The notes: generated from the sequence alone by a model not told the origin. 64,000 nucleotides of DNA from Promethearchaeota archaeon (GCA_048937405.1 JBHLNF010000005.1:160001-224000); one strand, 5' to 3'. Numbered from the stretch's first letter, positions 13,599 to 38,731 are shown. Numbers and translations: made by a program.

Positions 13599-13603
13599 TT
13601 TGG

Positions 13604-20454: not shown

Positions 20455-20749
20455 AATAATATTCCCACTATATAGTAAAATTAATGCATAATTTTGAAAG
20501 GTAATCTAGATGAATACAAACTTAAGATATTTTTTAATAATAATTTTTAATATAAAAAATAAATCAATTTTACAGATTTATAATTTGTCCTATTAACCAT
20601 ATGATTAAGACTGTTAGTCAATAAAAGCTTTCAATTTGGATTTGATTTATTTTTTTACATTTTATCTAAATAATTTTATGTTTTAGTTGGAGATGACTAA
20701 AATTTAATTAATTGATAAAAAAAGTTAATTAATAATTTCACAATAACTT

Positions 20750-21922: not shown

Positions 21923-22097
21923 AGTAAAGATTTCTAATATTTAAAATCATCAATTCTGTTCAATCATAGATTTTTCACACAAAAATCATTAGTAATGATG
22001 ATCACTAATTAAAATTTGAATAAATCATCTTTTTCTAAATAAAATCATTGTTGAATTTGAGTGAATTTCAATATAAAATTCATAATTCTGATTAATT

Positions 22098-23741
22098 TTA
22101 TTTTCTAGTAAATTTCTTAGTAAAGTTTAAACTTTTAAATAAAATTTTATCAAAGAATCTCTTTTTGTCTAAAAGAGACTGGAAATAAGATATATCAGAA
22201 GAAGTAACTGTTCTTAACAAGTAATTTGTTATAATAAAGAGAATAAAAAATGTAAAAATTGATAAGAAATCAAAATTCTTAAAGAGTGAAAATCCTAGAA
22301 GTAGAATAAACCCTTCAGCTGCATTTTTGAATATAAATTCCTTTAGAATTATTGTAATAGACAAAGGAATGAAAAATGTTATGTATTGAATTGCAATTTT
22401 TTTGATAATCAATTTAATTTTCCCAAATTTATATGTTGAATAGATTTGAATTATCATTGAAATAATATTTCCTATTATCAATCCATAGATAATTGCTCCT
22501 TCTACTCCAAAAAAGTAAAGCCCAATAAAAAATAATGGAATACTAATCGAAGTATAAATTATTCTTAAGATTAAGGTTAACTTTACTTTATGTTGAGCAT
22601 TTAAATGACTTTGTACAAATATCATGAGAATTTTGAAAATAGATGCAAGTACCATTAATCGAAGAAAATTTGAGTAAATTAACCGGTCTTCAAGAAATAC
22701 AAAATCTATAACAAATTCCACGCTAAAAAAAAGGACGCCTGACATAATTAGCAAAAGAAATAAGGTTACTCTATAAGTAATTCTAAAAATCTCTTCTATT
22801 TGCTTATAACTTTGTTTCGTGTTTAATGATGTAAAAGAGGTTAATAGTGGAAAATTAAAAGAATGAACAGCATAATCATTCAATTTTTGATAGTTTTGTG
22901 CAATATTATATCCCGTAACAACATCACTGGAGATTATATACCCAATTCCTTGAACTTGTGATTGGGTCCAAATTCTATCAATAAGATCATTGAGGCTCAT
23001 ATATCCACCATATTTAAATGTTTTAGAAACATCTTCCTTAAATGAATCTGTTTTGTTTCTCGTTAGTTTAATTTTATTAACCATTATAAAGACAAAAATA
23101 GAATTAAATATAAACGGAATTAAGCTTGAAATTAAAACTATCCATGCTGCAATTTCAATCTTAATTTCAATACTATTTATCCAAAAAATAATTAAAGGGA
23201 TAATATGTATCGTATTTTTTACTATTAAAAAAAGGAAATTATAATTAAACTTATTGAAACCACGATTAATGGCTTCTACTATATTATTCATATTATTTAT
23301 TAAAATACAAGGACTCAAAATAAAGAAAAGAGATACTAAAGTTTCTACAAGAAAATTAGAAAATAGAATAAAAATCAAAATACTGATAATAAAAATAGGA
23401 AATAGAAAAATCAGTTTTATTATAATAGTGTTTCGGATTAATGATTTCACCTTGGATCTTTCATTTAAGGCAAAATATCTTGGAATATAATAATTTAGAG
23501 TAAAATTGAGACCTGGAGGTAATAGGGATGTTATAGTTACTAAAATCATAATAATTGATGTGGCCATTATGAGAAGGCCCCAAATATCATCTACAAATAA
23601 ACGGGCTAAAAGAAAAGAATAGATAAAAGTGAAAAATAACGAGCTATAATTAAACAAAAATGAAAAGAAAGTATTTGTCGCCAAATTTCTGTATTCTGAA
23701 TTACCATTTGAATTTTTATTTTTATTATCTGAGTTTTCCAT
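22098..23741 (-). CDS. oligosaccharide flippase (Wzx/MOP family)
   Basis: About 14 TM, NLATNTFFS..LLARL start, GYNIA, GVEGAI; glycan locus. Confidence 0.75.
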   Translation of the reverse strand: MENSDNKNKNSNGNSEYRNLATNTFFSFLFNYSSLFFTFIYSFLLARLFVDDIWGLLIMATSIIMILVTITSLLPPGLNFTLNYYIPRYFALNERSKVKSLIRNTIIIKLIFLFPIFIISILIFILFSNFLVETLVSLFFILSPCILINNMNNIVEAINRGFNKFNYNFLFLIVKNTIHIIPLIIFWINSIEIKIEIAAWIVLISSLIPFIFNSIFVFIMVNKIKLTRNKTDSFKEDVSKTFKYGGYMSLNDLIDRIWTQSQVQGIGYIISSDVVTGYNIAQNYQKLNDYAVHSFNFPLLTSFTSLNTKQSYKQIEEIFRITYRVTLFLLLIMSGVLFFSVEFVIDFVFLEDRLIYSNFLRLMVLASIFKILMIFVQSHLNAQHKVKLTLILRIIYTSISIPLFFIGLYFFGVEGAIIYGLIIGNIISMIIQIYSTYKFGKIKLIIKKIAIQYITFFIPLSITIILKEFIFKNAAEGFILLLGFSLFKNFDFLSIFTFFILFIITNYLLRTVTSSDISYFQSLLDKKRFFDKILFKSLNFTKKFTRK

Positions 23742-24060
23742 GTCGAAAATTAAATTATTAATTTGAATAAATTAAGGGAAAAAATAGTAAGTCTCAAATT
23801 AAATTTATGGTTTGGGAAAGTTTAATATATCTTTTTAAGAAGCTAATTAAATTTACTATTCATATTATACTATAAATTTTATTAAAGAAAAGTTTAATAG
23901 GATAACGCTAAATTTTTATTTTTTACCTTTTTTCCCCTAGTTCTTTGACTTCTATAAATATTATAAGATTTTAATCCTTAATCTCATCATAAAGGATGAA
24001 AACCAATTAATATTAATTTTAAATAAAATTAAAATAATAAGCTTTTTAATCTTTATAGAA

Positions 24061-25227
24061 ATGAAATTAGATATATCAAAGAATCTGCATTCAAATCAAG
24101 AATTTAACAAAACTATGAAATTACAATATAAACCTAAAATTGGTATATTTACTAAACCAATCGACCAAGGTACAAGTGGTAGTGGGAGTTATTTAAGGCA
24201 GTTAGTGAATCAGATTCTAAAATTAAATAAAAAATTTAATATTGTTCTTATACATCATTCTAAAAATGATAATGAAGTGTATAAGAAAGCGAAAGATTTA
24301 ATTATTTCAAAAAATCCATTATTTGCTTATATAAAACTTAAAAAAGAAAATTTTGATCTACTTCATTATTATCCATTAACTATAACTTCTCCAATTTGGA
24401 TAAAAAAACCAAAAAAAGTTACTTCTGTTCATGGAGGTGGAGCAGCAGAGCTTTACTTTCCAAGTCAGTTTAGCTATATAAAACGGTTACATTCTAAATT
24501 AATTAAACCTAAATTTTTTAGGAAAATGGATTATATTTTTGTAGGATCTAATATTGGAAAAAAATTTCTTACACGTCAATATAATGTGAAAGAAGATAAA
24601 ATATTTTTTACTTATAGTGCGGTAAATGAAGATTTCAGAATTTATGAAAATAAACCTATCGAAATTAAGAAAAAATATGGAATTGAGGGGCCATTTATTT
24701 TCCATCTAAGTAAATTCTCAGAGAGAAAAAATCCATGGACAATAATGAAAGCTTTTCAAAAAGTAAAAATAATTAATGATAAGATTAAGTTAGTACTAGG
24801 AGGAAAAGGTTGGAAAAATATAAAAGTTATTGATTTTGCCAGAAAGAATGAAATTTTTAAAGATATCATATTTACTGGTTTTATTCCCCAAGAAGATCTT
24901 ATTCATCTTTTAAATTTAGCTGATGTCTTTGTTTTCCCCTCGTTTTTTGAAGGCTTTGGTATACCTAATTTGGAAGCAATGGCATGTGGTTGTCCAGTAA
25001 TTACTTCAAATGCCTTCGCAATACGAGAAATTGTAGGGGATGCCGCACTACTTTTAGAAGATAATTCAAATCCTGAAGAGTTAGCAAAAAAAATAATTTT
25101 ATTAATTAGTGATAAAAAATTACGAGATGAATTTATTAAAAAAGGTCTAGCAAGATTAAAATTATTCTCGTGGGAAAAAAGTGCCCAGACAGTATTAAAA
25201 ATATATGAAAGATGCTTGAACCTATAA
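24061..25227 (+). CDS. glycosyltransferase family 4
   Basis: ERKN, FTGFIP, FVFPSFFEGFGIPNLEAMACGCPVITSN, FSWEKSA. Confidence 0.92.
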   Translation: MKLDISKNLHSNQEFNKTMKLQYKPKIGIFTKPIDQGTSGSGSYLRQLVNQILKLNKKFNIVLIHHSKNDNEVYKKAKDLIISKNPLFAYIKLKKENFDLLHYYPLTITSPIWIKKPKKVTSVHGGGAAELYFPSQFSYIKRLHSKLIKPKFFRKMDYIFVGSNIGKKFLTRQYNVKEDKIFFTYSAVNEDFRIYENKPIEIKKKYGIEGPFIFHLSKFSERKNPWTIMKAFQKVKIINDKIKLVLGGKGWKNIKVIDFARKNEIFKDIIFTGFIPQEDLIHLLNLADVFVFPSFFEGFGIPNLEAMACGCPVITSNAFAIREIVGDAALLLEDNSNPEELAKKIILLISDKKLRDEFIKKGLARLKLFSWEKSAQTVLKIYERCLNL

Positions 25228-25491
25228 TTATCTCTTTTAAATTCTTTTTTTTAGAAAATATATTTAATTTTCTATTTATTTAAAAATCTAATCCCTTAGA
25301 TTTAATAGATATTTTTTCAACCTCTTAAATTCATGTTTAAAGTAAAAAGTTCTATCAATTTTTAACATCAATATTTGAAAAATTGATAAATATTGGAAGG
25401 TTTTATCCTTTAGAAAACTGAATCTATTACCATGATTAAAATTATAAACTTTCTAATTTTTATACATTTAATAACTATTTTTTAGTGAAAT

Positions 25492-26310
25492 ATGCCGAGA
25501 GAAAGTTTTAAAGAATTTAGACAAATTATTCAAGGAACAAAACTTGAAAAACAAAGAAAAAAGAAAGATTGGTGGCATTGGATTTACAGATTTTTCTCAA
25601 GATATATTACTTGGGTTCTTGTAAAAACCCCTATTTCTGCTAATATTATTACAATTACAGGAATATTGATTGGGTTAATAGGATTATTCTTAATAGGAAT
25701 AGGAAATAATTTTTTAATAATTTTTGGATTTATTTTATTATATATTTATTACTTATCTGATGAAGTTGATGGTGAAGTCGCTAGATATAAGAAACAAACA
25801 TCTTCACGAGGTATATATTATGATGAAATCGGACATTTATTCTTTCAAGGATGGTTTTTCTTTTCTTTTGGATACAGTATTTATAGGCTCAATTTTGAGT
25901 TTATGTATATTTTTCTTGCATTTATCGCAACTTTTTTCCTAATAGGAATTAGAACAGTTAGGAAAATATCCATCATAGCATTTGCTAAAGGTAATATTAA
26001 AAAAGGGAATGAAATTAAAACAAGAGGAGACGAAGAAAAATCCTCAAAAAAATCTTTTATTAAATTAGTTAAAAGTATATCTATCAATCTAGTAAATGGT
26101 TTTAGTCATACACACATGATAACAACAATGTTTTTTGTTGGATTCTTATTATATATCTATTTTGAAATTATTTGGGTAATAGAACTTTTGATGATTAGCT
26201 ACGTTCTATTTCTACTTTTTGTATTTCTAACATTTATGATTTTAAAAGCTAGAACTATTGAAAAAGATGCTCGAAAACATTATGAAAAAAAATTCTTGGA
26301 AAATCCATAA
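25492..26310 (+). CDS. CDP-alcohol phosphotransferase family membrane protein
   Basis: SANIIT, DEVDGEVAR...SSRG.YYD signature. Confidence 0.85.
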   Translation: MPRESFKEFRQIIQGTKLEKQRKKKDWWHWIYRFFSRYITWVLVKTPISANIITITGILIGLIGLFLIGIGNNFLIIFGFILLYIYYLSDEVDGEVARYKKQTSSRGIYYDEIGHLFFQGWFFFSFGYSIYRLNFEFMYIFLAFIATFFLIGIRTVRKISIIAFAKGNIKKGNEIKTRGDEEKSSKKSFIKLVKSISINLVNGFSHTHMITTMFFVGFLLYIYFEIIWVIELLMISYVLFLLFVFLTFMILKARTIEKDARKHYEKKFLENP

Positions 26311-26343
26311 TAAGTTTGAATTAAAAATTACGAAGGCATTTTA

Positions 26344-27849
26344 ATGAATATTTTTTGGATTGTTACTGACTCAATTTGCAATTATGAAAGGTCTGATTTA
26401 CATGGTTTACTTCCGACCTATAATAAATTAAAAAATGAAAATGAAGGTTTTTATTTTGAAGATTGTATCTCTCAATTTCCTTCAACAAATTTATCACTTT
26501 TATCATTTCTAACAGGTAGATTTCCTTATTATATATTCCCTGACTACTATCGTTCAATTAAGAATTTGCCCAGTTTGAAATATAAGAATTTTATTGCACC
26601 ATTGAAACAAGAGAATTACAGAGTTCAATCAATTTTTTTTGGTAGAGAACAAGCTGTAATTTTAAAAGAAATTCTCAATCCATTTTATGAAACAGATATG
26701 TATAAAGGAGATCACTGGCTGGATGCTAAGGAAGTATATCAATATTTTATTCAGAAAGTTGAAAAATTTCAGCCTGATGAAAAAAACTTTTTATTCACGT
26801 TTTTTAGACCAAGTGGCCCTCAAACAGATAAATATTTAAGGAAAATAATAGAATATTTAAAAAAGAATAATTATTGGGAAAATTCAGTAATAATCATCAA
26901 TTCGGATCATGGATATTATGATAAGAATTTATATAAGAAGACTAAATTACTCCATTTTGATGATATTCATCAATCATCGATGCAACCTGTTTTATTTATT
27001 AAATTACCAACGAGTTTGACTTTATCTCAGCCCAAGATAATAGAAAATAGGACATATTTAATTGATCTGATGGAGACGATTCTGGATTATCTAAATATTA
27101 AGATTTCTCATGAGAGGGATTCAATTTCTTTCAAAGATTTAATTGAAAAGGATATTGATGTGAACAATCAGAGAATAATCCGAGGAGATTGCTATTTAAT
27201 GTTCCAAGCAATTAAAAGAACTATGATAATAAAATCTAATTGGAAATTAGTAAATAATAATGGAATATTTTCATTATACAATTTATCTGAAGATCACTTA
27301 GAAAGAAAAGATATAAAAAACCAATATAATAAGATTTACAATGAACTATATCAATTCTATTTAATGACAGAATTGAAGGCATATAAGGTATTTGAATCAC
27401 TACTCTTTTCTCTTTATGATAAGAGTATATTACCAAAATTAAAATTATCAAAAATTTTTATTCCTAAACAATTTCCTCCTCAACTTGTAAGATTTCTCAA
27501 AGAAAATCTAGCGAAAAATAACATCATTATAAATAGTCAAGATCTAAATGAACTTCAATTAAACGATGATCAAAAACTTACTACTATACTCTTTTATAAC
27601 AGACTAACTGGAATTAGATTAAGCAAATTAATAAGAAAATATAAAGAACAAACCAAGCGATTCATAATTTTGGACACAGAATTAAATGAAGTTTCTGATC
27701 AATTAAATCAAACTGGGTACTTAAAATTCGTACTCAGATCAATTTGGGTCCGGAGAAAACTCTTATTTCAAAGATGGAAGGAGATTGTTGTTTGGATTTT
27801 ATATTTCCCATTATATTTCAACAAGCATGCAAGAAAATATTACAAATAA
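26344..27849 (+). CDS. sulfatase-fold (alkaline phosphatase superfamily) hydrolase/transferase
   Basis: NIFWIVTDS, FPST..S...TGR, IINSDHG, LYNL..D..E; lacks the C/SxPxR formylglycine motif. Confidence 0.75.
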   Translation: MNIFWIVTDSICNYERSDLHGLLPTYNKLKNENEGFYFEDCISQFPSTNLSLLSFLTGRFPYYIFPDYYRSIKNLPSLKYKNFIAPLKQENYRVQSIFFGREQAVILKEILNPFYETDMYKGDHWLDAKEVYQYFIQKVEKFQPDEKNFLFTFFRPSGPQTDKYLRKIIEYLKKNNYWENSVIIINSDHGYYDKNLYKKTKLLHFDDIHQSSMQPVLFIKLPTSLTLSQPKIIENRTYLIDLMETILDYLNIKISHERDSISFKDLIEKDIDVNNQRIIRGDCYLMFQAIKRTMIIKSNWKLVNNNGIFSLYNLSEDHLERKDIKNQYNKIYNELYQFYLMTELKAYKVFESLLFSLYDKSILPKLKLSKIFIPKQFPPQLVRFLKENLAKNNIIINSQDLNELQLNDDQKLTTILFYNRLTGIRLSKLIRKYKEQTKRFIILDTELNEVSDQLNQTGYLKFVLRSIWVRRKLLFQRWKEIVVWILYFPLYFNKHARKYYK

Positions 27850-28126
27850 CTAATTCTTGGTTTTTCTCGGGAACTTATTGAATTATAAAAAATTAATTTT
27901 AACTTTCTTAAGACTTTTTTTAGAGAAATTAATGAGAAAGAAAAGATAATTAAAGTTAGGATAATAATAGTTTAGATATCCAATAAAAGGATGAATAAAG
28001 TAACTCCTTACCTATATAAGACTTCATAAGTTTCGAGATAACAAAAAGAATATATAAATATCAAATCTCTAAAAGTTTATATAGGTAACCGTACTTGTAA
28101 GGTTATTAAACTTTTCATGTAATTAT

Positions 28127-29050
28127 ATGCCGAAACAAAAATTTTCTGATCCTGAAGAAATTAAGAAGATTTATGAGAGTGTTAAAAAAATCGGATATAA
28201 AAAAACATCTGAGAAATTTAATGAGCATATTTCACTTCTAGAGCGAATTGTAAGAAGATATGAAGAAAACAAGGAAGTAAAAAAGATGAAAGTAATTATT
28301 ATAGCCGCGGGTCCAAGTACAAGATTAAGACCCTTAACTGAATATAAGCCAAAATGTTTATTAGAAATTGAAGAAAAAAGCATTCTTGAACGTATAATAG
28401 AAATTTTTAAATATTTTGGTCTTGATAACTTTGTAATTATTCGAGGATATCAAAAAGAAAAAATTGATTTACCAAATATTTCCTACTATGATAATGATGA
28501 TTACTATAACAATAATATTCTCGAATCATTGTTTTACGCTGAGGAGGCAATGAAAGATGGATTTATTTTCACCTATTCAGATATATTGTACAGTAAAAAT
28601 GTCGTTAAAAAATTATTAGATTCCCCTCATGATTTTAGTTTTATCGTAGATACTGATTGGAGGAAAAGATATGAAGGACGCACAAAACATCCTACAGACG
28701 AAGCTGAATTAGTTATTGTAGAAGATGGGAAAATAAAACATCTATCAAAATTTTATAATCCAGATATTGCTTACGGAGAATTCATAGGACTTGGTAAATT
28801 TACAAAAAAAGCGGCAGAAATTTTAAGCCGTAACTATAATCGTGCAAAATACAATAAAACTTGTAAATTTGAGGGAAGATTTCATGATGCAACGACTATG
28901 CAAAAAGCATACTTAACAGATATGCTTGAAGAACTTATTTTTCGAGGATATTCAATGCATTCGGTTGACATTCAAGGAGAATGGGTAGAAATGGATACCG
29001 AGGAAGATTATGAATATGCTAAAGAATTAATAAAAAATGGAAAAATATAA
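28127..29050 (+). CDS. phosphonate/phosphocholine cytidylyltransferase (LicC/PntC-like) with about 53-aa N-terminal extension
   Basis: IIAAGPSTRL.PLT...PKCLL, YSDIL, GEFIG, WVEMDT.ED. Confidence 0.82.
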   Translation: MPKQKFSDPEEIKKIYESVKKIGYKKTSEKFNEHISLLERIVRRYEENKEVKKMKVIIIAAGPSTRLRPLTEYKPKCLLEIEEKSILERIIEIFKYFGLDNFVIIRGYQKEKIDLPNISYYDNDDYYNNNILESLFYAEEAMKDGFIFTYSDILYSKNVVKKLLDSPHDFSFIVDTDWRKRYEGRTKHPTDEAELVIVEDGKIKHLSKFYNPDIAYGEFIGLGKFTKKAAEILSRNYNRAKYNKTCKFEGRFHDATTMQKAYLTDMLEELIFRGYSMHSVDIQGEWVEMDTEEDYEYAKELIKNGKI

Positions 29051-29067
29051 AATTAGGTTAAAAAAAT

Positions 29068-30399
29068 ATGAGCGAAGTTGAAATTACTAATAATAAAAAT
29101 GAAATTAAAAAAGCATTTGATACTGGTTATAAACTAGCCAATTGGCGAATGCGAATATTTTTTACTGGTTGGATTACTTACATGATTTACTATATAGGAC
29201 GAAATAATTATGGAGTAGCAAAACCATTTATCATGAATGAATTTGGATATACTGCTACTTTAATGGGAGTTGTGAGTTCTATCTTTCTTATTGCATATGC
29301 ATTTGGACAATTCTTTAATGGTTTTTTAGGTGACAAAATCGGTGCCAGACGCTTTATTACATTAGGATTAATTGTATCATCAGTTTTAAATTTGATGATG
29401 GGAGTTGCATTTGACTTTATTTGGGTAGCTTTTCTTTTTTGGGGTTTAAATGGCTATTTTCAATCAATGGGATGGGCACCTTCAGTGAAAACAATTGCTA
29501 ATTGGCATCCTGCTGAAGAAAGAGGTAAATGGTCTAGTAGACTTGCCACTTCATATCTACTTGGGGGAGTTCTATCATGGGGTATCGCCATTCTTATTAC
29601 TGATACATTTAGTCTAGATTGGCGTTATTCTTTTATTATTCCAGGAATTATAATGTTTCTCATGACGTTTCATTTTTATTTCCGTATTAGAAATGCCCCT
29701 GAAGAGGTTGGTTTACCAACTTTGGAAGAAGAATGTGAAGGTGTAATAGTAATGGGTGACTGCCGTCCAGATGAATTTGTAGGCTTTAAATATATTTTTA
29801 ATACAGTAATTAAAACTAAAACTGTTCTTTTTGCAGCTTTTGGATTATTTTGCCTAAATATAGTTCGATATGGGTTAACTGATTGGCTCCCATATTTATT
29901 AAGTCCTGAAATAACAGGTGCAGAAGAATTTGGTACTTGGAAATCAATTTTTTACCCTATTGGAGGTACATTTGGTGTCATTGTTGCTGCATGGATTTCA
30001 AATAAATATCTTAAAAAAAGAAGAATACCTGTAGTTTGTGCTCTTTTTCTGACTTTAGGATTAACATTATTCATATATACTTTCCTACCTCCACTTGATA
30101 TGGTTTTTGGAATTCCTGTATTGATGTTAATTGGTTTCTTAAATTTTGGACCTCATGCACTTTTAGTTTCTACAATACCCATGGAATTTGGGACAAGAAA
30201 AGCATCATCTGCAGCTACAGGATTTATTGATGGTGTTGGTTATATAGGAGCCGCTATTACAACTTTTTCCTCAGGAGCTCTTATTGATGCTGCTGGTTCT
30301 GGAGCTGCTTTTTTACTCTGGATTATAGTTGCACTAATAGGAGGTTTAGTCCTATTATTAGATTGGAAAAGTATACCAGAAAGAAGAGAATATGTTTAA
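29068..30399 (+). CDS. MFS organophosphate transporter (GlpT/UhpC, OPA family)
   Basis: 12 TM; YYIGR.NY, G.LGDKIG.R, W....ERG, VRYG, GFIDG.GY. Confidence 0.85.
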   Translation: MSEVEITNNKNEIKKAFDTGYKLANWRMRIFFTGWITYMIYYIGRNNYGVAKPFIMNEFGYTATLMGVVSSIFLIAYAFGQFFNGFLGDKIGARRFITLGLIVSSVLNLMMGVAFDFIWVAFLFWGLNGYFQSMGWAPSVKTIANWHPAEERGKWSSRLATSYLLGGVLSWGIAILITDTFSLDWRYSFIIPGIIMFLMTFHFYFRIRNAPEEVGLPTLEEECEGVIVMGDCRPDEFVGFKYIFNTVIKTKTVLFAAFGLFCLNIVRYGLTDWLPYLLSPEITGAEEFGTWKSIFYPIGGTFGVIVAAWISNKYLKKRRIPVVCALFLTLGLTLFIYTFLPPLDMVFGIPVLMLIGFLNFGPHALLVSTIPMEFGTRKASSAATGFIDGVGYIGAAITTFSSGALIDAAGSGAAFLLWIIVALIGGLVLLLDWKSIPERREYV

Positions 30400-30570
30400 A
30401 CAAAAATATATATTTTTTTTTATTAATTATTTTATAGATAATTCTAATTAATCTCGATAAATTTATTTAGTTAAATTATAAAGAATTTATTGATAATGGA
30501 TTCAATTTTTATTCAAAAATAACTATATATTATTAGATCATGCTTAATCAAATATTTAAATCAAACTAAG

Positions 30571-32280
30571 GTGACATGGATGGAATTAAAATTGAGAAGA
30601 AGGATCTTACCTAATGAAAGAAGGAGTATTTTGAAAAATTTACTTAATAAAAAGGGTTTTGCTAGAATTCTCGAAACCCATAATGGTTTGAGTGCCATAA
30701 TTGCTAATAATATAAAGGAAATAAATAAGGGTGAAATTCTTGAATTTAATGGATTTTGGGTGAGTAGTTTTACGGATAGCGCTGCTAAAGGATATCCTGA
30801 TATTGAAATTATTGGTATGGAGTCACGATATGAAACGATTCGTCAAATTCTAAATAATACAAATAAACCTATAATAATAGATGGCGATACTGGAGGGGAA
30901 GCAGCAAATTTCGAATATTTTGTAAGATCTTTAGAAGACATGGGAGTTTCAATGGTTATTATTGAAGATAAAAAGTTTCCAAAAAGAAATAGTTTGGAAA
31001 GTGGTACAATCCAAGATCAAGAAGATCCAGAGATTTTCTCAATAAAAATCAAAAGAGGCAAAGAGGTTCAAATATCAAAAGATTTCATGATTGTTGCTAG
31101 AATCGAAAGTTTAATTTCAGGATTAGGGTTAAAGGATGCTCTCTTTAGAGCAAAGAAGTATTTATTAGCAGGAGCAGATGGAATTATGATTCATTCCAAA
31201 AGTATTGATCCTAAAGAAATATTAGAATTTGCTGTGGAGTATAATAAATTATCAAAAGAATTAGGTTTTAGGAAACCACTGGTCTGTGTTCCTACAACGT
31301 ATAATACCGTTTCAGAGGAAAATTTACAAGATTATGGTTTTAATATTGTTATATATGCTAATCATCTCTTAAGAGCTGCTCATAAGGCTATGAAGGAAAC
31401 AGCTTCAATAATTTTAAGAAATAAAAGAGCATTTGAAGCAGAAACTATGTGCAGCCCTGTAAAATCAGTTTTTAGAGATGTTGGGTTTCTAGATGTTAAA
31501 GAAAAGGATATGAAATATATTAAAGGTATTACAAAAGTTATTATTCCTGCAGCTGGTGAAGATCCTGAATTTGAAATTCCTAAAGCAATGACGACTTTAA
31601 AGGGTAAAACAATTCTACAACGACAAATAGAAACATTGAAGAATTGTGGAATTACTGATATTATTGTAATAAGAGGATTTAAAAAAGAGGATATTAATGT
31701 TGATGGCATAAGATACATTGATAATGATGAATACAACAAGTACCATATTTTACATTCATTATTTAAAGCAGAAAATGAAATGCAAGGAGGTTTCATATTT
31801 ATTTATTCAGATATTTTATTCAATGAGCAAATAATCAAAAATTTGTTAATGGTAAAAGGAGATATTATTTTAGTTTTGGATAATTCTTATACTTATCATA
31901 AACACAAGATTGATAAAAACCTTGATTTAATTTTAACAAAAAATAAACCAAGTGAACAGTCTAGAGATTTATACCAAAAAAAGAATGAAATTATACGAAT
32001 TGGTAAACAAATAAATATGGATATGGCAGATTTTGAATTTACGGGTATTGCATATTTTTCAGAATATGGTGTTGAGATTATTAGACGAATATATAATGAG
32101 TGCAATTTGACCCATAAGGGAAAATTTCATGAAGCAGATTCATTTCAGAAAGCATCTTTTGTAGATCTGATACAAGAAGTAATAGATAGAGGTTTCAGAG
32201 TGGACATTTTGGAAGTTCATAAAGGATGGTTTGAACTCCATAATAAAAAAGATGTTGAGGTAGCTGAAAGATTAATCTAA
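30571..32280 (+). CDS. pepM: phosphoenolpyruvate mutase fused to a C-terminal nucleotidyltransferase
   Basis: PepM-diagnostic EDKxxxxxNS (EDKKFPKRNS, 30964-30993), DGDTGG, ARIES, IHSK, VPTTY, YAN; C-terminal IPAAG...YSDIL NTP-transferase; ATG at 30580 is an alternative start. Confidence 0.93.
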   Translation: MTWMELKLRRRILPNERRSILKNLLNKKGFARILETHNGLSAIIANNIKEINKGEILEFNGFWVSSFTDSAAKGYPDIEIIGMESRYETIRQILNNTNKPIIIDGDTGGEAANFEYFVRSLEDMGVSMVIIEDKKFPKRNSLESGTIQDQEDPEIFSIKIKRGKEVQISKDFMIVARIESLISGLGLKDALFRAKKYLLAGADGIMIHSKSIDPKEILEFAVEYNKLSKELGFRKPLVCVPTTYNTVSEENLQDYGFNIVIYANHLLRAAHKAMKETASIILRNKRAFEAETMCSPVKSVFRDVGFLDVKEKDMKYIKGITKVIIPAAGEDPEFEIPKAMTTLKGKTILQRQIETLKNCGITDIIVIRGFKKEDINVDGIRYIDNDEYNKYHILHSLFKAENEMQGGFIFIYSDILFNEQIIKNLLMVKGDIILVLDNSYTYHKHKIDKNLDLILTKNKPSEQSRDLYQKKNEIIRIGKQINMDMADFEFTGIAYFSEYGVEIIRRIYNECNLTHKGKFHEADSFQKASFVDLIQEVIDRGFRVDILEVHKGWFELHNKKDVEVAERLI

Positions 32281-32304
32281 TTTTAAATAAGAGTAGGTTA
32301 TAGG

Positions 32305-33441
32305 ATGAATGAATATATAGGATATGGTTCTATATCGAAGCTTAAATATATTTTAAAGAATGAAAATTTCAAAGATATTTTTCTTATAACTGGAAATTCA
32401 AAGTTAGAATTAAACAATATCAATAAAGTTAAAACTATTGTAAAGAAATATTCAAATTTCTTTCATTTTAATGATATTGCTCCAACTCCTTCAGTCTTGG
32501 GTATTGAAAAAGCATTAAATTCTTTTAAAAAGAAGAAATATGATTCTATTATTGCATTGGGAGGAGGATCAGTCTTAGATATTGGAAAAAGTGTTTCAAT
32601 TTTTTCTACTAATGAAGGAAAAATAGAAGATTATCTTCTAAAAAAAGAAAAACTGAGAAGAAAAGGAATCCCTTTAATATTAATTCCAACAACCTCAGGA
32701 ACTGGAAGTGAAGCAACTCACTTTGCTGTTATATTTATTGAAAAAACAAAATATTCTCTGGCAGATCCAATATTAATTTCTCCAAAATATACTATTGTAG
32801 ATCCTGAACTAACATACAGTCTTCCAAAAAGAATTACTGCATATACTGGTATGGATGCATTATGTCAAGCGATTGAATCTTATTGGAATATTAATTCTAC
32901 AAATGAATCCAAGAATTACGCAAAAAAAGCGATAAAACTCATATTGAAAAACTTATTTAATGCCGTTCACAATCCTGATAAAAAATCAAGATATAGTATG
33001 GCAATTGCTGCACATTTTTCTGGTAAAGCAATTAATATTACAAAAACTACTGCTTGTCATGCTATCTCATATCCTATTACCTCATATTTTAATGTACCAC
33101 ATGGACATGCGGTAGCTCTAACTTTACCATCAATGTTTATTTTTAATTCAAATGCAAATGAAAAAGATATCAATGATCTTCGTGGAGTTGATTTTGTTAA
33201 AATGACAATGAATGAACTCATCTCAATTCTAGGAGTTTCTAATTTTACTGACGCAAAAAATAAAATTAAAAATTTAATTAAAAATATAGGTTTAGAAACA
33301 AATCTAGGAGATTTAGGGATAAAAACTCAAGATGATATAGAAATAATTATAAAAAATGGATTTAATCCAGAAAGAGTTAAAAATAATCCCAGAATTTTAA
33401 CTGAAACTCAATTAAGAGAGATTTTAGAGGATATTAAATGA
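32305..33441 (+). CDS. phosphonoacetaldehyde reductase (Fe-containing ADH, PhpC-like)
   Basis: GGGSVLD, PTTSGTGSE, DALCQAIES, TTACHAISY, PHG; between pepM and ppd. Confidence 0.87.
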   Translation: MNEYIGYGSISKLKYILKNENFKDIFLITGNSKLELNNINKVKTIVKKYSNFFHFNDIAPTPSVLGIEKALNSFKKKKYDSIIALGGGSVLDIGKSVSIFSTNEGKIEDYLLKKEKLRRKGIPLILIPTTSGTGSEATHFAVIFIEKTKYSLADPILISPKYTIVDPELTYSLPKRITAYTGMDALCQAIESYWNINSTNESKNYAKKAIKLILKNLFNAVHNPDKKSRYSMAIAAHFSGKAINITKTTACHAISYPITSYFNVPHGHAVALTLPSMFIFNSNANEKDINDLRGVDFVKMTMNELISILGVSNFTDAKNKIKNLIKNIGLETNLGDLGIKTQDDIEIIIKNGFNPERVKNNPRILTETQLREILEDIK

Positions 33442-34154
33442 AAGTATTATTGTTAAACTCAGGTATTGGAAAAAGATTAGCTCCATTAACGAATAACTTA
33501 CCAAAATGTCTTATAAAAATATCAGATAATGAAACTATATTAGACCATCAATTAAAGAGTATAATAAAGTGTGGTTTCACAGAATTTATCATTACTACTG
33601 GTCCATTTGAGGATAAAATCAAAAATCATATTGAAAAATTTTATCCTTCTATTTATGTTGACTATGTAATTAACCCATTATATAACAAAACTAACTATAT
33701 TTATTCTCTTTATTTAACGCGGAATAAAATCAATGATGATGTCCTATATTCACATGGTGATTTAATCTTTTCTGAAAATTTAGTAAAATTATTGCTTGAA
33801 TCTAAGTATAAGGATTGTGTATTAGTAAATAAAGATATTCCACCTCCAGAAAAAGATTTTAAATCAAAAATTCTTGATAATAGAATATTTAAAATAGGCG
33901 TTAATTTGAAAGGTGTTAGTACAGCTTTTTTAGCTCCATTATATAAATTAACAAAAAATTTTATGTTAAGATGGATTCAAGAAATTGAATTTTTCATAGA
34001 AAATAAGAGAGTAAATTGCTATGCCGAAGATGCTTTAAATGAAATTTTAAATGAACTTATTTTAAAACCTTGTTATTATAATGAATTTTGTGTTGAAATT
34101 GATGATTATCAAGATTTAGAAGGAGTTAAAAATTATTTAAACAAATATATATAA
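33438..34154 (+). CDS. phosphonate/phosphocholine cytidylyltransferase (LicC/PntC-like)
   Basis: LLNSGIGKRL.PLT...PKCL, TNYIYSL, HGDL, EIDD..D. Confidence 0.82.
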   Translation: MKVLLLNSGIGKRLAPLTNNLPKCLIKISDNETILDHQLKSIIKCGFTEFIITTGPFEDKIKNHIEKFYPSIYVDYVINPLYNKTNYIYSLYLTRNKINDDVLYSHGDLIFSENLVKLLLESKYKDCVLVNKDIPPPEKDFKSKILDNRIFKIGVNLKGVSTAFLAPLYKLTKNFMLRWIQEIEFFIENKRVNCYAEDALNEILNELILKPCYYNEFCVEIDDYQDLEGVKNYLNKYI

Positions 34155-34170
34155 AAATTTAGATAATTCA

Positions 34171-35316
34171 ATGGTAAAAATGATTGTGTGTGAAGAATTT
34201 ATAAAAATTTTAGAGAAATATGATTTTACTTTTTTTACGGGTATCCCAGACTCAACTTTTAAGGATTTGATGAAATATTTAACTGATAATCCTAATGGGA
34301 ACCTTAAAAATATAGTTGCCTGTAATGAATGTGAAGCAATTGCTATAGCGTCAGGTTATCATTTAGCAACAAATAATATAGGAATTGTTTATATGCAAAA
34401 TTCTGGATTTGGAAAAACTGTTAACCCTCTTACATCTTTATGTGATCCTGAAGTATATTCAATACCTATCCTTTTAATGATTGGATGGCGGGGAGAACCA
34501 AACATAATGGATGCCCCACAACATAAAAAAATGGGAATAATTACATTACCTATTTTGGAAACTCTCCAAATACCTTATGAAGTATTGGAACCTAATCTAC
34601 AAAAGATAGATAAAGCATTAAATCACGCATTAGACTATTTTACCAACAAAAAAGGACCCTATGCTTTAATATTTCGGAGGAATTTCTTTCAAAATTATGA
34701 AATGAAGACTTCTTTAACAAATAATTATCATTTAACTACAAGGGAAGTTATTCAGATAATTTTAGATAGTTTTTCTACTGATGAAATTGTAGTTTCTACT
34801 ACTGGTTATATATCGAGAAGAATTTTTGAATATAGAGAAAAAAATATAAAAGATCATCATAAAAGTTTCTATAATATAGGTTCAATGGGATGTGCTAGCT
34901 CTATTGGATTAAGTATAGCTCTACAAAAACAAAAGAATAGGGTTATTGTTTTTGATGGGGATGGTGCTGCTATAATGCAAATGGGGGCATTTTCAACTAT
35001 AGGAAAATATGCACCTTCTAATTTTGTTCATATAATTATAGATAATGAAGCTCATGAATCTACTGGGTGTCAACCAACAAATTCAGCTAGTATAAAATTT
35101 ATAGATATAGCTAGAGCATCCAATTATAAGTGGAATGTTAAGGTTGAGAGAAAAGATGAATTATATGAAGTTTTAGATATTATTCAAAATCGAAATGGAC
35201 CAATTTTAATTGTAATAAAAACAAAGATTCATTCTGAACCAGATTTGAAAAGACCAGATAAACTTCCAAGGGAATATAAAAAAGACTTTATGAGGTATCT
35301 ATCTAAATTAAACTAG
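34171..35316 (+). CDS. ppd: phosphonopyruvate decarboxylase (ThDP)
   Basis: FTGIPDS, YMQNSG.G..VNPL.SL, IGWRGEP....PQH, TTG..SR, GSMG, DGDGA, N..HESTG.QPT. Confidence 0.92.
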   Translation: MVKMIVCEEFIKILEKYDFTFFTGIPDSTFKDLMKYLTDNPNGNLKNIVACNECEAIAIASGYHLATNNIGIVYMQNSGFGKTVNPLTSLCDPEVYSIPILLMIGWRGEPNIMDAPQHKKMGIITLPILETLQIPYEVLEPNLQKIDKALNHALDYFTNKKGPYALIFRRNFFQNYEMKTSLTNNYHLTTREVIQIILDSFSTDEIVVSTTGYISRRIFEYREKNIKDHHKSFYNIGSMGCASSIGLSIALQKQKNRVIVFDGDGAAIMQMGAFSTIGKYAPSNFVHIIIDNEAHESTGCQPTNSASIKFIDIARASNYKWNVKVERKDELYEVLDIIQNRNGPILIVIKTKIHSEPDLKRPDKLPREYKKDFMRYLSKLN

Positions 35317-35459: not shown

Positions 35460-36431
35460 ATGACACTTGAAGATAGAAGAATTTTAGTTACTGGTGCTGC
35501 AGGATTTATTGGGAGTAATTTAACTGATAAATTACTTAATTCAGGTGCAAATGTAATTGGTATTGATAATCTATTTAATGGGCGATTGGAAAACCTAGAT
35601 AAGGCTTTTAATAATAAAAATTTTCATTTCTATAAAGGAGATATAAGGGATTTTAATTTTTTACTTGACATTTTTAAAGATATTGATATAATTTTTCACG
35701 AAGCTGCATTTACTAGTGTCCCTCAGTCAGTTATAATGCCCGAATCTTGTAATGATGTTAATGTAAATGGTACTTTAAATGTGTTAAATGCTGCTAGGAA
35801 AAGAGATGTTGAAAGAATTATTTTTGCTTCGAGTTCAGGAGTATATGGAGATACTCCAACATTACCCAAAAAAGAAAGTATGCCAAGAATACCAATATCT
35901 CCTTATGGTGTAGCTAAATTAGCTTGTGAAGCATATATGCAGGCTTTTTATCATGTTTATGGTTTAAATACGCTTTCTTTAAGATATTTTAATGTTTTTG
36001 GACCTAGACAACGAGATTCTCCATATAGTGGGGTAATTGCAATTTGGCTTGGAAAATTAATCAGTAATAACAATTTAATAATATTTGGTGATGGAGATCA
36101 ATCAAGAGATTTTACATATATTAAAGATGTTATTCAAGCAAATATCTTAGCAGTTGAAAATACAATTTCAGGAGAAATATTTAATATTGGTGCGGGGGTT
36201 CCAATAAAAGTATTAGATCTTGCAAAATTAATGCTAAAACTCACAAATAAAGAGGATTTAAAAATCATTTTTGATCCTCCAAGACCTGGAGATATAATGC
36301 ACAGTTATGCTGATATTTCAAAAGCTAAAGAGTTTTTAAAATTTCAACCAAAATACAATCAAGAACAAGGTCTAAGAGATTACTTTAAATGGTATTTTGA
36401 AAAATATAAGATTAATTTAATTTTAAATTAA
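35460..36431 (+). CDS. UDP-hexose/HexNAc 4-epimerase (extended SDR)
   Basis: VTGAAGFIGS, HEAA, ASSS.VYG, SPYGVAK, LRYFNVFGPRQ, RDFTY. Confidence 0.9.
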   Translation: MTLEDRRILVTGAAGFIGSNLTDKLLNSGANVIGIDNLFNGRLENLDKAFNNKNFHFYKGDIRDFNFLLDIFKDIDIIFHEAAFTSVPQSVIMPESCNDVNVNGTLNVLNAARKRDVERIIFASSSGVYGDTPTLPKKESMPRIPISPYGVAKLACEAYMQAFYHVYGLNTLSLRYFNVFGPRQRDSPYSGVIAIWLGKLISNNNLIIFGDGDQSRDFTYIKDVIQANILAVENTISGEIFNIGAGVPIKVLDLAKLMLKLTNKEDLKIIFDPPRPGDIMHSYADISKAKEFLKFQPKYNQEQGLRDYFKWYFEKYKINLILN

Positions 36432-36445: not shown

Positions 36446-38731
36446 ATGGAAATTTTTAGAAGTAAATTCAAAAATATTCTAATTTTTCTATATTCAAGAA
36501 TTCATTTAGTTGTCTTTTTAATTTCAGTTACTTCTCTTATATTCATTTTTTTTAAAATTATTAATTTAGAATTAATTTTAGGATTTTCAGAAAATTTGTT
36601 TTTTGCCTCAGTCTTTCAAACATTGGTTATTTTAAGTACAATTTATACTATTTTATTTTTACCGACTTATCCAGTTTTTTTCATAATTTTTAAAGAGAAG
36701 TCTTTCAATTATTTAGAAAAATTAAGTTTAACTATAGTCATAAATTCTGCTTTTTACATTCTCATGGGATATATGGGATTTCTCATTAGAATTCCGTTAA
36801 CCAAATTCTTTTTCTTTTTTTCAGCATCAATTTTTTTTTTTTTAATAATTGGATATATTATCATTTTCGAATCTAAGAAAAATCTATATGTTTTTATCAG
36901 ATCAAAAGATATTTCTACTTTAAAGAAAGAGAATTTAAGTATAATTTATTTCATTAAATATCTCAAAAATTTATTCTCTTTTAATATTATTTTATTAATA
37001 GTTTTCTTATTTCTTATTTGTATTTTAAATATCGTCAAAGTTAATAATTTTATTGGAACTGATCCTTGGCTTCATATCCTTAATAGTACAGTTCTTACAG
37101 ATCTTAATATTTTACCTTTGGAAGGATATCATGGTACGATGGGATTAAACATATTTGAAGGCGTAATCTATTTCTTTTCTGGAATAGAACACATTCGTAT
37201 ACCCAGTTATTTTGTATTTTACACATTCTTTGTGTCAGGTTTAATTTTTTATAATATTTGTATGAGAATTTTTAAAGATCAAAATTTAGCCATATTTGGA
37301 GTATTTCTTTTAGAATTTTCTTCTTTAGGTTTCTCCGTAATGATGATTCAATATTGGCCTTCTGGTTCAGCATTAATTAAATGTTTAATGATTTTTTTCC
37401 TTTTATATGTAAGACTCGAGAATTTTATTAAATCAGAACGTCCTTCTAAAAGAACTATTTTCTTAAATATATATTTTGATTATGCATTAATTACATTAAT
37501 TTTTATCAGCTCAGTTCTCACCCATGATGTAACAACGTTATTCTTCTTGTTTTCTTTTCTATGGTTATATTTAATTTATTTTTTAAGAGATTATAGGAGA
37601 GGATTTGATTTTATATTCTTATGCTTATTATTAGTCTTATTTCTTGTTTTTTCTATTTTTGGAATAGGTGAAGGACATTACTGGTTTATTGAATCATTAG
37701 AAATTTCATGGTACTATCTTGTTTTAGGGATTTTAACAGGTGGTCCAATATTGATAATTATTTTGTGGAAATTTAGTAAATCAATTAATTTTACTAATGG
37801 AAAATTTAGTGCTACAATTAAGGGAGAAACTAGTATCCATTATAAAAAAATTGAGGAGAAGATAATAATTCCGCTAATTTCAAGTGTTATATTCTTATCC
37901 CTTATGATTTTTTTAATACTAGACAATATTTGGATGAATATAGGAATAATAAATATCCTTTATATGATTGAGATAATAACGATAAGTAGTTTCGCTATTT
38001 GGGGGTTAATTATCTTCCAAAAAAAACAAAGTGGTAAAGCATTGTTTATCTGGGGAATAGGATTATTATTATTCCTATTAACTGGATTTGTATTTGATTT
38101 CTTTGTATTGAATAATATGATTTGGCAGAGAATACTCTATTTAATCCCTCCTATTATTGTCTTCGGATTTCTAGCGTATATATATAAACTCATTAAATTA
38201 AATTCTTTTAGAACATTTCAAAAGAAATTTGTATTTTTGTTTATTATATTATTTTCACTATTTGTTTCTTACTTTTATGAATCAAAATCTTTTGAGATTT
38301 TTATATTAAAAGATAGAGAAATTAGCTCAATTCAATGGTATTCTAATAGGACAAATAATAAAAATGTTATAATTACTGAAGTTGGCTGGAGTCATGTTTT
38401 TAGATATTATGATTATCTTTATGGTAATAATTCAGAACCACTTCCTTATGATCAAAATTTTTATTTTCTAAAATCCAAAATAGATCTTTTTCCTCCAAAT
38501 AATCACTACAATGAAAGTGAGGTAAATATTTTAGAGTATATTAAAGGCAAATATAATACTGATGTCTTTATCCTATTTGCAGACGATTATATTATTAACA
38601 GAGGTTTTGATTTATTTGGTCACTTAAGTGAAGAAGAGAGAGAACAATATTATTCTCTTAATTATTTAAATAAAATTTGCGTTTCAAGCACAGAGGAGGG
38701 AAGAGAAATTCCTTTATATTGGGTTATCTAA
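36446..38731 (+). CDS. polytopic membrane protein, putative GT-C glycosyltransferase
   Basis: Many TM segments, GTDPWLH loop motif, soluble C-terminal domain. Confidence 0.5.
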   Translation: MEIFRSKFKNILIFLYSRIHLVVFLISVTSLIFIFFKIINLELILGFSENLFFASVFQTLVILSTIYTILFLPTYPVFFIIFKEKSFNYLEKLSLTIVINSAFYILMGYMGFLIRIPLTKFFFFFSASIFFFLIIGYIIIFESKKNLYVFIRSKDISTLKKENLSIIYFIKYLKNLFSFNIILLIVFLFLICILNIVKVNNFIGTDPWLHILNSTVLTDLNILPLEGYHGTMGLNIFEGVIYFFSGIEHIRIPSYFVFYTFFVSGLIFYNICMRIFKDQNLAIFGVFLLEFSSLGFSVMMIQYWPSGSALIKCLMIFFLLYVRLENFIKSERPSKRTIFLNIYFDYALITLIFISSVLTHDVTTLFFLFSFLWLYLIYFLRDYRRGFDFIFLCLLLVLFLVFSIFGIGEGHYWFIESLEISWYYLVLGILTGGPILIIILWKFSKSINFTNGKFSATIKGETSIHYKKIEEKIIIPLISSVIFLSLMIFLILDNIWMNIGIINILYMIEIITISSFAIWGLIIFQKKQSGKALFIWGIGLLLFLLTGFVFDFFVLNNMIWQRILYLIPPIIVFGFLAYIYKLIKLNSFRTFQKKFVFLFIILFSLFVSYFYESKSFEIFILKDREISSIQWYSNRTNNKNVIITEVGWSHVFRYYDYLYGNNSEPLPYDQNFYFLKSKIDLFPPNNHYNESEVNILEYIKGKYNTDVFILFADDYIINRGFDLFGHLSEEEREQYYSLNYLNKICVSSTEEGREIPLYWVI

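Follow-up and report, generated by a model that had tools for sequence, protein, structure and literature searches.

A three-module locus with a predicted 2-hydroxyethylphosphonate core in the surface-glycan island of a Lokiarchaeia-type Asgard archaeon

The activation of phosphonates as cytidine monophosphate (CMP) conjugates, the fusion of phosphoenolpyruvate (PEP) mutases to nucleotidyltransferase (NT) domains, and the formation of CMP-2-hydroxyethylphosphonate (CMP-HEP) by Fom1 are all established (PMC6697681). Here these known systems serve as a reference for interpreting a locus of eight genes (positions 25492-35316) within a 64,000-nucleotide stretch of DNA, termed here the window, from Promethearchaeota archaeon (GCA_048937405.1 JBHLNF010000005.1:160001-224000). 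The locus encodes a PEP mutase (PepM) fused to an NT domain (NTb), a phosphonopyruvate decarboxylase (Ppd), an iron-dependent alcohol dehydrogenase (Fe-ADH), two further nucleotidyltransferases (NTa and NTc), a transporter of the major facilitator superfamily (MFS), a protein of the cytidine diphosphate (CDP)-alcohol phosphotransferase family (CDPOH) and a sulfatase-fold protein (Sulf). It is probably a mosaic of three modules, lodged within the variable surface-glycan island of a Lokiarchaeia-type archaeon, in which a core set of enzymes makes CMP-HEP and transferases decorate a glycan.

The bacterial Pnt clusters (Rice et al. 2019, PMC6697681) resemble this locus in that their PepM carries a C-terminal PF12804 domain, a stand-alone LicC-fold nucleotidyltransferase is encoded one or two genes away, the setting is one of cell-surface glycan genes, and the same CMP-activation logic applies. 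The locus described here differs from them in having Fe-ADH rather than a 2-aminoethylphosphonate (AEP) transaminase (AEPT), in having a histidine where PntC has a particular glutamate, in lacking a LicD-type transferase, and in its Asgard host. The HEP branch of Streptomyces, with its PhpC/FomC-type reductases and its Fom1 cytidylyltransferase-PepM fusion, follows the same predicted route to CMP-HEP; here, however, there are no downstream antibiotic-tailoring enzymes, and Fe-ADH falls below the cut-off of the corresponding profile (TIGR03405). The Fom1 architecture, that is, a PF01467 domain followed by PepM, does occur among Asgard archaea (in the families designated here f3, f13 and f16), whereas the PepM of the window has a C-terminal PF12804 domain instead.

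Among the examples cited in PMC8942020 are the methylphosphonate cluster of Nitrosopumilus maritimus and the HEP-bearing exopolysaccharides of Stackebrandtia and Glycomyces. Like the present locus, these involve clusters of PepM, Ppd and Fe-ADH, and they give phosphonate esters on polysaccharides. The present locus differs from that of Nitrosopumilus in that no ORF left between positions 20 and 42 kb of the window could be an MpnS or HEPD, in that it belongs to an anaerobic sediment lineage, and in that HEP, rather than methylphosphonate, is the expected head group. The Nitrosopumilus cluster also contains sulfatase-like and nucleotidyltransferase genes. Loci of Woesearchaeota and Nanoarchaeota share the gene set PepM-Ppd-FeADH-NTc, at 45-55% identity to the proteins of the window; the PepMs of these DPANN archaea are Fom1-like, whereas that of the window belongs to a clade with C-terminal PF12804 domains that includes Nitrospinaceae, Dehalococcoidia and Thermoplasmata. 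Finally, the combination of NTa, MFS and CDPOH, which occurs alone in congeners without PepM, resembles the import-activate-transfer logic of the Lic pathway (LicB, LicC, LicD) and of Kennedy-type routes. It differs from the Lic pathway in having a transporter of the organophosphate:phosphate antiporter (OPA) type, from which an already phosphorylated substrate would follow, in having no kinase, and in having a variant CDP-alcohol phosphotransferase and Sulf as its transferases in place of LicD.

Gene content and modular organization

Open reading frame (ORF) calls, together with Pfam and NCBIfam profiles, define eight uninterrupted ORFs within 25492-35316, all on the plus strand:

25492..26310, plus strand: CDPOH, a membrane protein of the CDP-alcohol phosphotransferase family (PF01066, a marginal 25.1 bits against a cut-off of 22)
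26344..27849, plus strand: Sulf, of the Sulfatase/Phosphodiest fold and the alkaline-phosphatase (AP) superfamily (PF00884, 49.7 bits)
28127..29050, plus strand: NTa, an NTP_transf_3 nucleotidyltransferase (PF12804, 40.3 bits)
29068..30399, plus strand: MFS, an OPA-like MFS_1 transporter (PF07690, 164.6 bits)
30571..32280, plus strand: PepM (about residues 1-305) fused to NTb, a MobA/LicC-fold NTP_transf_3 domain (about residues 320-569) (TIGR02320, PF13714 and PF12804)
32305..33441, plus strand: Fe-ADH, an iron-dependent alcohol dehydrogenase matched over its full length (PF00465 and PF25137)
33438..34154, plus strand: NTc, a stand-alone LicC/PntC-fold NTP_transferase (PF00483, 40.9 bits)
34171..35316, plus strand: Ppd, phosphonopyruvate decarboxylase (TIGR03297, PF02775 and PF02776)

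This stretch is flanked by genes for GT2 and GT4 glycosyltransferases and for a MOP-family flippase. The gaps between successive genes from CDPOH through a downstream epimerase gene (34, 278, 18, 172, 25, -4, 17 and 144 bases) suggest three transcription units: CDPOH-Sulf, NTa-MFS and PepM-FeADH-NTc-Ppd. The last of these units (30571-35316), termed here the core, is alone phosphonate-specific, and its products most likely make CMP-HEP.

The preliminary description of this stretch took the eight genes to be one complete cassette for phosphonate biosynthesis and attachment, a view that does not survive comparison with related genomes. Gene neighbours were examined at 20 Asgard loci and, within the genus of the window (termed here g1), at 11 loci with or without PepM. 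Sulf is present at all 11 g1 loci, with or without PepM; CDPOH accompanies NTa-MFS at 8 of 8 g1 loci, and occurs at none of the three (in congeners G182, G178 and G209) that have the core and Sulf only. In four other congeners (G204, G202, G213 and G195) the same slot is occupied by CDPOH-(GT4)-Sulf-NTa-MFS, followed immediately by the epimerase and/or a 761-aa protein, with no core; TIGR02320 detects no PepM in these four genomes, which are 88-100% complete, nor in G236. (In G213, besides its core-less locus, L144 on contig C145, a fragment of an Fe-ADH orthologue, at 73% identity, is found on a separate short contig, C76:2387-3136.) The GT4 gene adjoins CDPOH and Sulf at 7 of the 11 g1 loci (L037-L040, L142, L145 and the window), the MOP flippase is a conserved left neighbour throughout the genus, and the right flank is syntenic at all g1 loci regardless of the core. 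NTa is always paired with an MFS gene, including within genomes that lack PepM and beside the PepM cluster of L051. The eight genes are thus three separable modules that form a composite locus rather than one dedicated cassette; as sources of donor, the core and NTa-MFS act as modules that either replace or supplement one another, and the core may be a presence/absence polymorphism within a population.

The transferase slot is also variable between genera. In genera g2 and g12 (L041:14592-15797 and L046:10936-12156) the position of Sulf next to the core is taken by a gene for a TagF-like CDP-glycerol glycerophosphotransferase (PF04464, 266-271 bits), and within g12 the NTa-MFS pair of genome G236 adjoins an apparent TagF-like gene (judged by its size and position) at the place where G262 has the core. 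By analogy, this TagF-like neighbour hints that CMP-HEP may be used in the way that CDP-glycerol is.

Sulf itself has neither a signal peptide nor, by hydropathy scan, a transmembrane segment; its catalytic domain begins at residue 1, and it carries an amphipathic C-terminal helix. These properties point to a cytoplasmic, probably membrane-peripheral protein, which is regarded here as a candidate phospho(no)transferase. Three of its residues (D9, D188 and H189) are invariant, and T48, in the register of the nucleophile, is at least 90% conserved. The AlphaFold2 model (mean predicted local distance difference test score 81.5) matches S1 sulfatases and YejM best in Foldseek (TM-score about 0.5, E-values 1e-15 to 1e-13), matches that are generic and do not separate hydrolase from transferase. 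A true (S1) sulfatase function for 26344-27849 was considered and rejected: the formylglycine motif C/S-x-P-x-R is missing, the corresponding segment reading S-T-N-L-S, and Thr48 occupies the nucleophile position. Homologues at 46% identity or more bear, where named, Asgard names only, and the next match is at 29%. (One Atlas look-alike cluster of Sulf comes from Nitrososphaerota, and is noted as a lead only.)

CDPOH has as its best PDB matches AF2299 (E-value 5e-9) and IPCT-DIPPS, both of which take soluble CDP-alcohols as donors. Of its signature D..DG..AR..G...D...H, the residues D90, D93, G94, A97, R98, G107 and D111 are present, and H115, which is invariant in 16 Asgard homologues, aligns with the fourth signature aspartate of AF2299 and IPCT-DIPPS. 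The segment (residues 90-115, 25759-25836) departs from the canonical signature D1xxD2GxxAR...GxxxD3xxxD4 in that D4 is replaced by His115, a variant that looks like a distinct subfamily.

Within the import module, NTa keeps the signature loop AAGPSTRLRPLT..PK and is 35% identical to NTb, its paralogue. A 53-residue N-terminal extension (28127-28285) is shared by L040 and L142, but is dispensable, because a stop cuts it off in L037-L039. MFS, which starts 18 bases past the NTa stop, is an OPA-like transporter of GlpT/UhpT/PgtP-like type by its best profile matches (PgtP, UhpC and GlpT), none of which exceeds its subfamily cut-off (TIGR00881 222.6 bits against 407.75; UhpC 190 bits; GlpT 178 bits against 632); its substrate would be an organophosphate or a phosphonate.

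Under the favoured reading, module 2 (NTa and the OPA-type MFS, 28127-30399) would provide a separate supply by importing such a compound and activating it as a nucleotide conjugate, and module 3 (Sulf, together with CDPOH, which is tied to module 2) would move the activated head group to an acceptor. That acceptor would most likely be a lipid-linked glycan, assembled by the GT4 and GT2 glycosyltransferases and decorated before export by the MOP flippase. The suggestion of the preliminary description that the decorated structure is an S-layer glycan is set aside in favour of a surface glycoprotein or glycolipid, inasmuch as a cultured Loki relative has no ordered S-layer (PMC9834061). A wider proposal, offered as a tentative one, is that Lokiarchaeia use a hitherto unrecognized class of cytoplasmic, AP-fold CMP-phosphonate/CDP-alcohol:glycan phospho(no)transferases with a threonine nucleophile, which would be functionally interchangeable with TagF-like enzymes and fed by either de novo CMP-HEP synthesis or the import module; the result would be strain-variable HEP esters on the cell surface and, possibly, teichoic-acid-like polymers that contain HEP.

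Alternatively, all eight genes could form one system, in which CDPOH places the phosphonate head group of CMP-HEP on an archaeal lipid alcohol, yielding a phosphonolipid, and Sulf perhaps relays that head group to a glycan in the manner of LtaS or EptA. There are bacterial precedents, inasmuch as a CDP-alcohol transferase next to pepM characterizes a predicted phosphonolipid group, and sulfatase-rich clusters another (PMC8942020). This alternative also accords with the affinity of CDPOH to AF2299 and DIPPS, and with the mere 34 bases that separate CDPOH from Sulf. It is nevertheless unlikely: CDPOH and Sulf accompany NTa-MFS in congeners devoid of PepM, three congeners have the core and Sulf without CDPOH, and the fourth signature aspartate of CDPOH is a histidine. 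Moreover, the absence from Sulf of a signal peptide and of transmembrane segments, unlike LtaS and EptA, argues against an extracellular relay.

The phosphonate core and its predicted product

The favoured three-module reading depends on the core making CMP-HEP, a route whose first two enzymes are firmly assigned. PepM scores 339.3 bits against TIGR02320 (equivalog cut-off 319.55) and 164.8 bits against PF13714, and its residues 132-141 read EDKKFPKRNS, a motif retained in 8 of 8 aligned Asgard PepMs. The pattern EDKxxxxxNS distinguishes PEP mutases from their isocitrate-lyase relatives (PMC6697681). Identification as an isocitrate lyase or a phosphonopyruvate hydrolase was rejected, given this motif and the far lower scores against the other models (157.6 bits for phosphonopyruvate hydrolase and 97 bits for methylisocitrate lyase), and the PEP mutase of the preliminary description stands. 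The enzyme is accordingly named PepM, and it is predicted to convert PEP to phosphonopyruvate. Translation probably begins at the ATG at 30580, because alignments of orthologues begin at residue 4-6. Ppd likewise exceeds its equivalog cut-off (TIGR03297, 419.4 bits against 312.5, over profile positions 2-360), matches both thiamine-pyrophosphate domains and adjoins PepM at 19 of the 20 Asgard loci, in agreement with its earlier naming as a phosphonopyruvate decarboxylase. It would decarboxylate phosphonopyruvate to phosphonoacetaldehyde and thereby pull the unfavourable PepM step forward.

The NT domain fused to PepM is of a different character. NTb (31530-32280) reads AAGEDP-----EFEIPK, so that the arginine-bearing G-x-G-x-R-L loop is missing, and this GxGxR loop is likewise missing from 15 of 15 fused NT domains that were aligned, including those of Nitrospinaceae, Thermoplasmata, Methanosarcinales and Falkowbacteria (the aligned fused proteins include L011, L013, L021, L024, L028, L034, L056, L065-L068, L070, L075 and L076). 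The domain is the same in HEP-type and AEP-type clusters, which points to a role that is independent of the branch; in the proposed pathway NTb, without its nucleotide-binding arginine loop, would have some such role, and it may be non-catalytic or work differently. (Rice et al. characterized stand-alone PntCs rather than the PepM-fused domain; PMC6697681.) Hence the three LicC/PntC-type cytidylyltransferase domains that were originally counted are three by fold, but probably not three by activity.

Fe-ADH is the predicted phosphonoacetaldehyde reductase, which would convert phosphonoacetaldehyde to HEP. Because it falls below the cut-off of TIGR03405, this assignment rests on genomic context, which is strong. 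Of the 399 Asgard genomes, 38 contain an orthologue (E-value at most 1e-60), which lies beside PepM in 35 of those 38; NCBI names Asgard orthologues 'phosphonoacetaldehyde reductase'. In the sister genus g11 (L047:12063-14118 and L048:5829-7674) an AEP transaminase (TIGR03301, 437-442 bits against 360.8) stands in the place of Fe-ADH, and the two enzymes are mutually exclusive in the clusters examined. As had been stated of the window, no AEP transaminase is present; indeed, none passes the cut-off anywhere in the genome (best score 169 bits against 360.8). An O2-dependent HEPD or MpnS had been reported absent as well, and the 20-42 kb region bears this out, inasmuch as it holds no unassigned ORF of at least 100 aa that could encode one, although no genome-wide search for HEPD/MpnS was made. 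Neither C-P lyase (PhnJ) nor phosphonatase exceeds its cut-off in the genome; phosphonate producers generally do not consume their own product (PMC8931226).

NTc, whose first 4 bases are also the last 4 of the Fe-ADH gene, has LicC (1jyk, 4.5e-9) and PntC (6pd1) as its best PDB matches, and its nucleotide-binding signature (SGIGKRLAPLT..PK) is intact. In the PntC termed Tde-PntC, Glu104 and Glu196 contact the amine of AEP (PMC6697681). The comparison of cytidylyltransferase specificity made here concerns the Glu104 position, which is His106 in NTc and tyrosine in both NTa and NTb. At this position histidine is found in 11 of 11 aligned NTc proteins from Fe-ADH-type clusters (from Asgard, DPANN and candidate phyla radiation (CPR) genomes), and glutamate in 2 of 2 AEPT-type Asgard clusters (L047 and L048 of g11). 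Such a switch of the stand-alone nucleotidyltransferase in step with the branch enzyme is what would be expected if the nucleotidyltransferase activates the branch product, which here would be HEP. NTc is thus a predicted branch-specific HEP cytidylyltransferase, translationally coupled to Fe-ADH, that would form CMP-HEP from HEP and cytidine triphosphate. Identification of NTc as an AEP-specific PntC was not adopted, given the histidine at the Glu104 position.

Comparative evidence therefore makes the route that was first proposed, from PEP through phosphonopyruvate and phosphonoacetaldehyde to HEP, followed by activation with CMP, the preferred interpretation of the four core genes; the predicted pathway to CMP-HEP is well supported by that evidence. 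Several points weigh against the favoured reading as a whole. Sulf and CDPOH, the candidate transferases, both also occur without PepM, and their native donor may be something other than CMP-HEP. Fe-ADH scores 197.7 bits against TIGR03405 (Phn_Fe-ADH), where the cut-off is 423.7, and slightly higher, 203.7 bits, as a lactaldehyde reductase. The His/Glu correlation rests, on its AEP side, on just two related clusters and one characterized enzyme. Some of the PepM-less genomes (e.g., G213) may be strain mixtures, and the genome containing the window has an estimated contamination of 5.7%.

The scores of Fe-ADH leave some room for an end product other than HEP, either through a different or oxidative use of Fe-ADH or through an unlinked enzyme that turns phosphonoacetaldehyde into AEP or some other phosphonate; another contig does encode a class-V aminotransferase, which scores 169 bits against the AEPT model. 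This alternative is improbable, however, in view of the near confinement of the Fe-ADH orthologue to genomes with PepM, where it adjoins PepM, the mutual exclusion of Fe-ADH and AEPT, the absence of the AEP-binding glutamate from the partner nucleotidyltransferase, and the large shortfall of the unlinked aminotransferase relative to the AEPT cut-off.

A still smaller probability attaches to the idea that the pathway passes through HEP or CMP-HEP on its way to a diffusible phosphonate natural product, one like fosfomycin or phosphinothricin, instead of decorating the surface. In fosfomycin biosynthesis Fom1 does make CMP-HEP (PMC6697681), and a radical-SAM/SPASM gene and several methyltransferase genes do occur at 2.8-11.3 kb of the window. 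These methyltransferases, however, are part of a deoxysugar set 20 kb away, and a Fom3-type B12 radical-SAM enzyme, an epoxidase, HEPD and a peptide ligase are all missing from the cluster and its immediate surroundings; in addition, the cluster lies among glycosyltransferases, a flippase and polytopic membrane proteins, and in related genomes TagF-like polymer transferases accompany the core.

Distribution and phylogeny of PepM, and the host

PepM occurs in 43 of 399 Asgard species-level genomes (this one included) and in 17 of the 54 genomes of the window's genus. The C-terminal PF12804 architecture is found in 31 of the 43, namely in genera g1, g2, g11 and g12 of family f1 and in one genome of f11. 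The other 12 do not match the NT domain of the query: three that were scanned (L049, L051 and L055) are built like Fom1, an N-terminal PF01467 cytidylyltransferase domain preceding PepM, and most of the others have reading frames of similar length (429-442 aa). Two single-contig genomes of family f3 carry this Fom1-like form, and the L051 cluster, from a single-contig genome of the host's own order, has NTa-MFS beside it. (A differing cluster variant is seen at L052:6734-7840, in G013 of family f13, where a Fom1-like PepM lies beside a glycerol-1-phosphate-dehydrogenase-like protein, at 223 bits and thus under the cut-off, and a CDP-alcohol transferase; this contig ends within Ppd.)

In a maximum-likelihood tree of 117 PepM domains, the two fusion architectures correspond to two clades, both supported at 100%. 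The f1 PepMs form one clade (32 rows, 99% support), which shares an unresolved fork with Nitrospinaceae, Dehalococcoidia, single metagenome-assembled genomes (MAGs) of Deltaproteobacteria, Falkowbacteria and Methanosarcinales, and a pair of Thermoplasmata and f11 Asgard sequences; the Fom1-like Asgard PepMs are interleaved with those of Woesearchaeota, Nanoarchaeota and Methanosarcinales. Given the branches with good support, Asgard PepM must have had three or more origins. The PepM domain of the window is 57-60% identical to that of Nitrospinaceae and, when compared with solved structures, scores nearly the same against the mussel enzyme (164 bits) as against that of Streptomyces (165 bits). 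The tree shows a PepM that, as far as its sequences tell, has been patchily inherited and shaped by transfer, with no link to eukaryotic phosphonate synthesis and with a fork from which the f1 donor is unassignable. The phylogeny and synteny survey that had been put forward as a check on the preliminary description has thus returned a patchy, polyphyletic gene within a modular locus, and the hope that the pathway would bear on the origin of eukaryotic phosphonolipids is not borne out, given this distribution, the at least three origins, the grouping with bacterial, DPANN and Thermoplasmata sequences, and the equivalence of the mussel and Streptomyces scores.

Nor is the cassette rare. PepM(-NT), Ppd, Fe-ADH and NTc occur together at 16 of the 20 Asgard loci; the four-gene cassette is also found in Woesearchaeota, Nanoarchaeota and Falkowbacteria, and loci of Thermoplasmata, Methanosarcinales, Methanosphaera and Methanomethylophilaceae retain, at a minimum, PepM, Ppd and Fe-ADH. 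The impression of rarity conveyed earlier therefore yields to a cassette that is common among DPANN archaea, Thermoplasmata, methanogens and CPR bacteria, and whose Asgard Fe-ADH orthologues already bear their functional name at NCBI. The literature searched contained no published Asgard phosphonate pathway, consistent with the original remark that none has been characterized. A survey of cold-seep biosynthetic gene clusters attributes phosphonate clusters to six archaeal phyla and does not name Asgard archaea in its text. The chemistry, then, is of a known kind and the lineage is new, such a locus not having been described previously in Lokiarchaeia.

Models of eukaryogenesis give contact between cells a central role, hence the interest in the Asgard cell surface, about whose chemistry, to our knowledge, almost nothing is known. 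Judging from the locus, the surface glycans of about one-tenth of Asgard species would bear a C-P head group that resists hydrolysis, with presence or absence varying at the strain level and with swaps between HEP and AEP. With regard to phosphorus cycling, an abundant anaerobic sediment lineage would join the phosphonate producers. Given a patchy and polyphyletic PepM that is nearest to bacterial and other archaeal sequences, the locus has no bearing on the origin of eukaryotic phosphonolipids. For phosphonate enzymology, useful outcomes are the His/Glu switch by which the stand-alone cytidylyltransferase tracks the HEP or AEP branch, and the missing catalytic arginine loop in the mutase-fused PF12804 domain throughout the C-terminal-PF12804 clade.

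The window is part of a 4.47-Mb MAG of 29 contigs with a completeness of 100%; its contig is 269 kb long with a guanine-plus-cytosine (GC) content of 27%, the remaining contigs ranging over 27-31%. The MAG contains no 16S rRNA, and placement of the host rests on eukaryotic signature proteins and named relatives: the genome encodes five actin homologues (best score 441 bits), the window encodes a 612-aa Arf-like GTPase, a Ras-family GTPase and an E1-like ThiF protein, and the nearest named relatives of the cluster proteins come from 'Candidatus Lokiarchaeota archaeon' and 'Promethearchaeota archaeon' MAGs. These agree in making the host, as had been suspected, an Asgard archaeon, and one of Lokiarchaeia type. 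A chimeric assembly, in which a bacterial fragment was fused to an Asgard contig or sorted into the same bin (the hazard raised in the preliminary description), is excluded for practical purposes, notwithstanding the estimated contamination and the bacterial identity of the nearest non-Asgard PepMs, since more than 10 MAGs of the genus, recovered by different studies, repeat the order flippase, cluster, Arf-like GTPase, the contig extends over 269 kb with a core GC content (0.27-0.30) equal to the genome mean, and the PepMs of the window's family form a single clade with 99% support.

Surroundings of the locus

The principal genes adjoining the eight-gene stretch are these:

22098..23741, minus strand: MOP-family (Wzx-like) flippase of the glycan island (PF01943, 55.6 bits)
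24061..25227, plus strand: GT4 glycosyltransferase (PF00534, 139 bits)
35460-36431, plus strand: NAD-dependent sugar epimerase (PF01370, 214 bits)
36446-38731, plus strand: 761-aa polytopic membrane protein of no Pfam family, with many hydrophobic segments by hydropathy scan

The surrounding glycan island also holds an ABC-2 exporter and, in all, two polytopic membrane proteins of about 760 aa (15206-17497 and 36446-38731), neither of which matches a Pfam or NCBIfam family; these may be GT-C-like glycan transferases or polymerases. (Atlas look-alikes of the 36446-38731 protein are of the DUF2206/DUF6541 type, again a lead only.) Farther upstream, at 436-12549, lies a set of sugar genes that encode an NDP-sugar synthase, a 4,6-dehydratase, a 3,5-epimerase, a C-methyltransferase, a radical-SAM/SPASM enzyme, two FkbM methyltransferases, and CmcI-like and TylF-like O-methyltransferases, a content that suggests a heavily methylated deoxyhexose within the same glycan. 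The GC content is 0.23-0.25 over positions 12001-28000 of the glycan island, against 0.27-0.30 in the phosphonate core and about 0.29 in the genome; such a low-GC stretch is typical of a variable surface-antigen region. Beyond the 761-aa protein, on the minus strand at 38724-39521, a 265-aa protein scores 237.5 bits against NF003321 (a conserved hypothetical family), just under the cut-off of 262, and is syntenic in all congeners.

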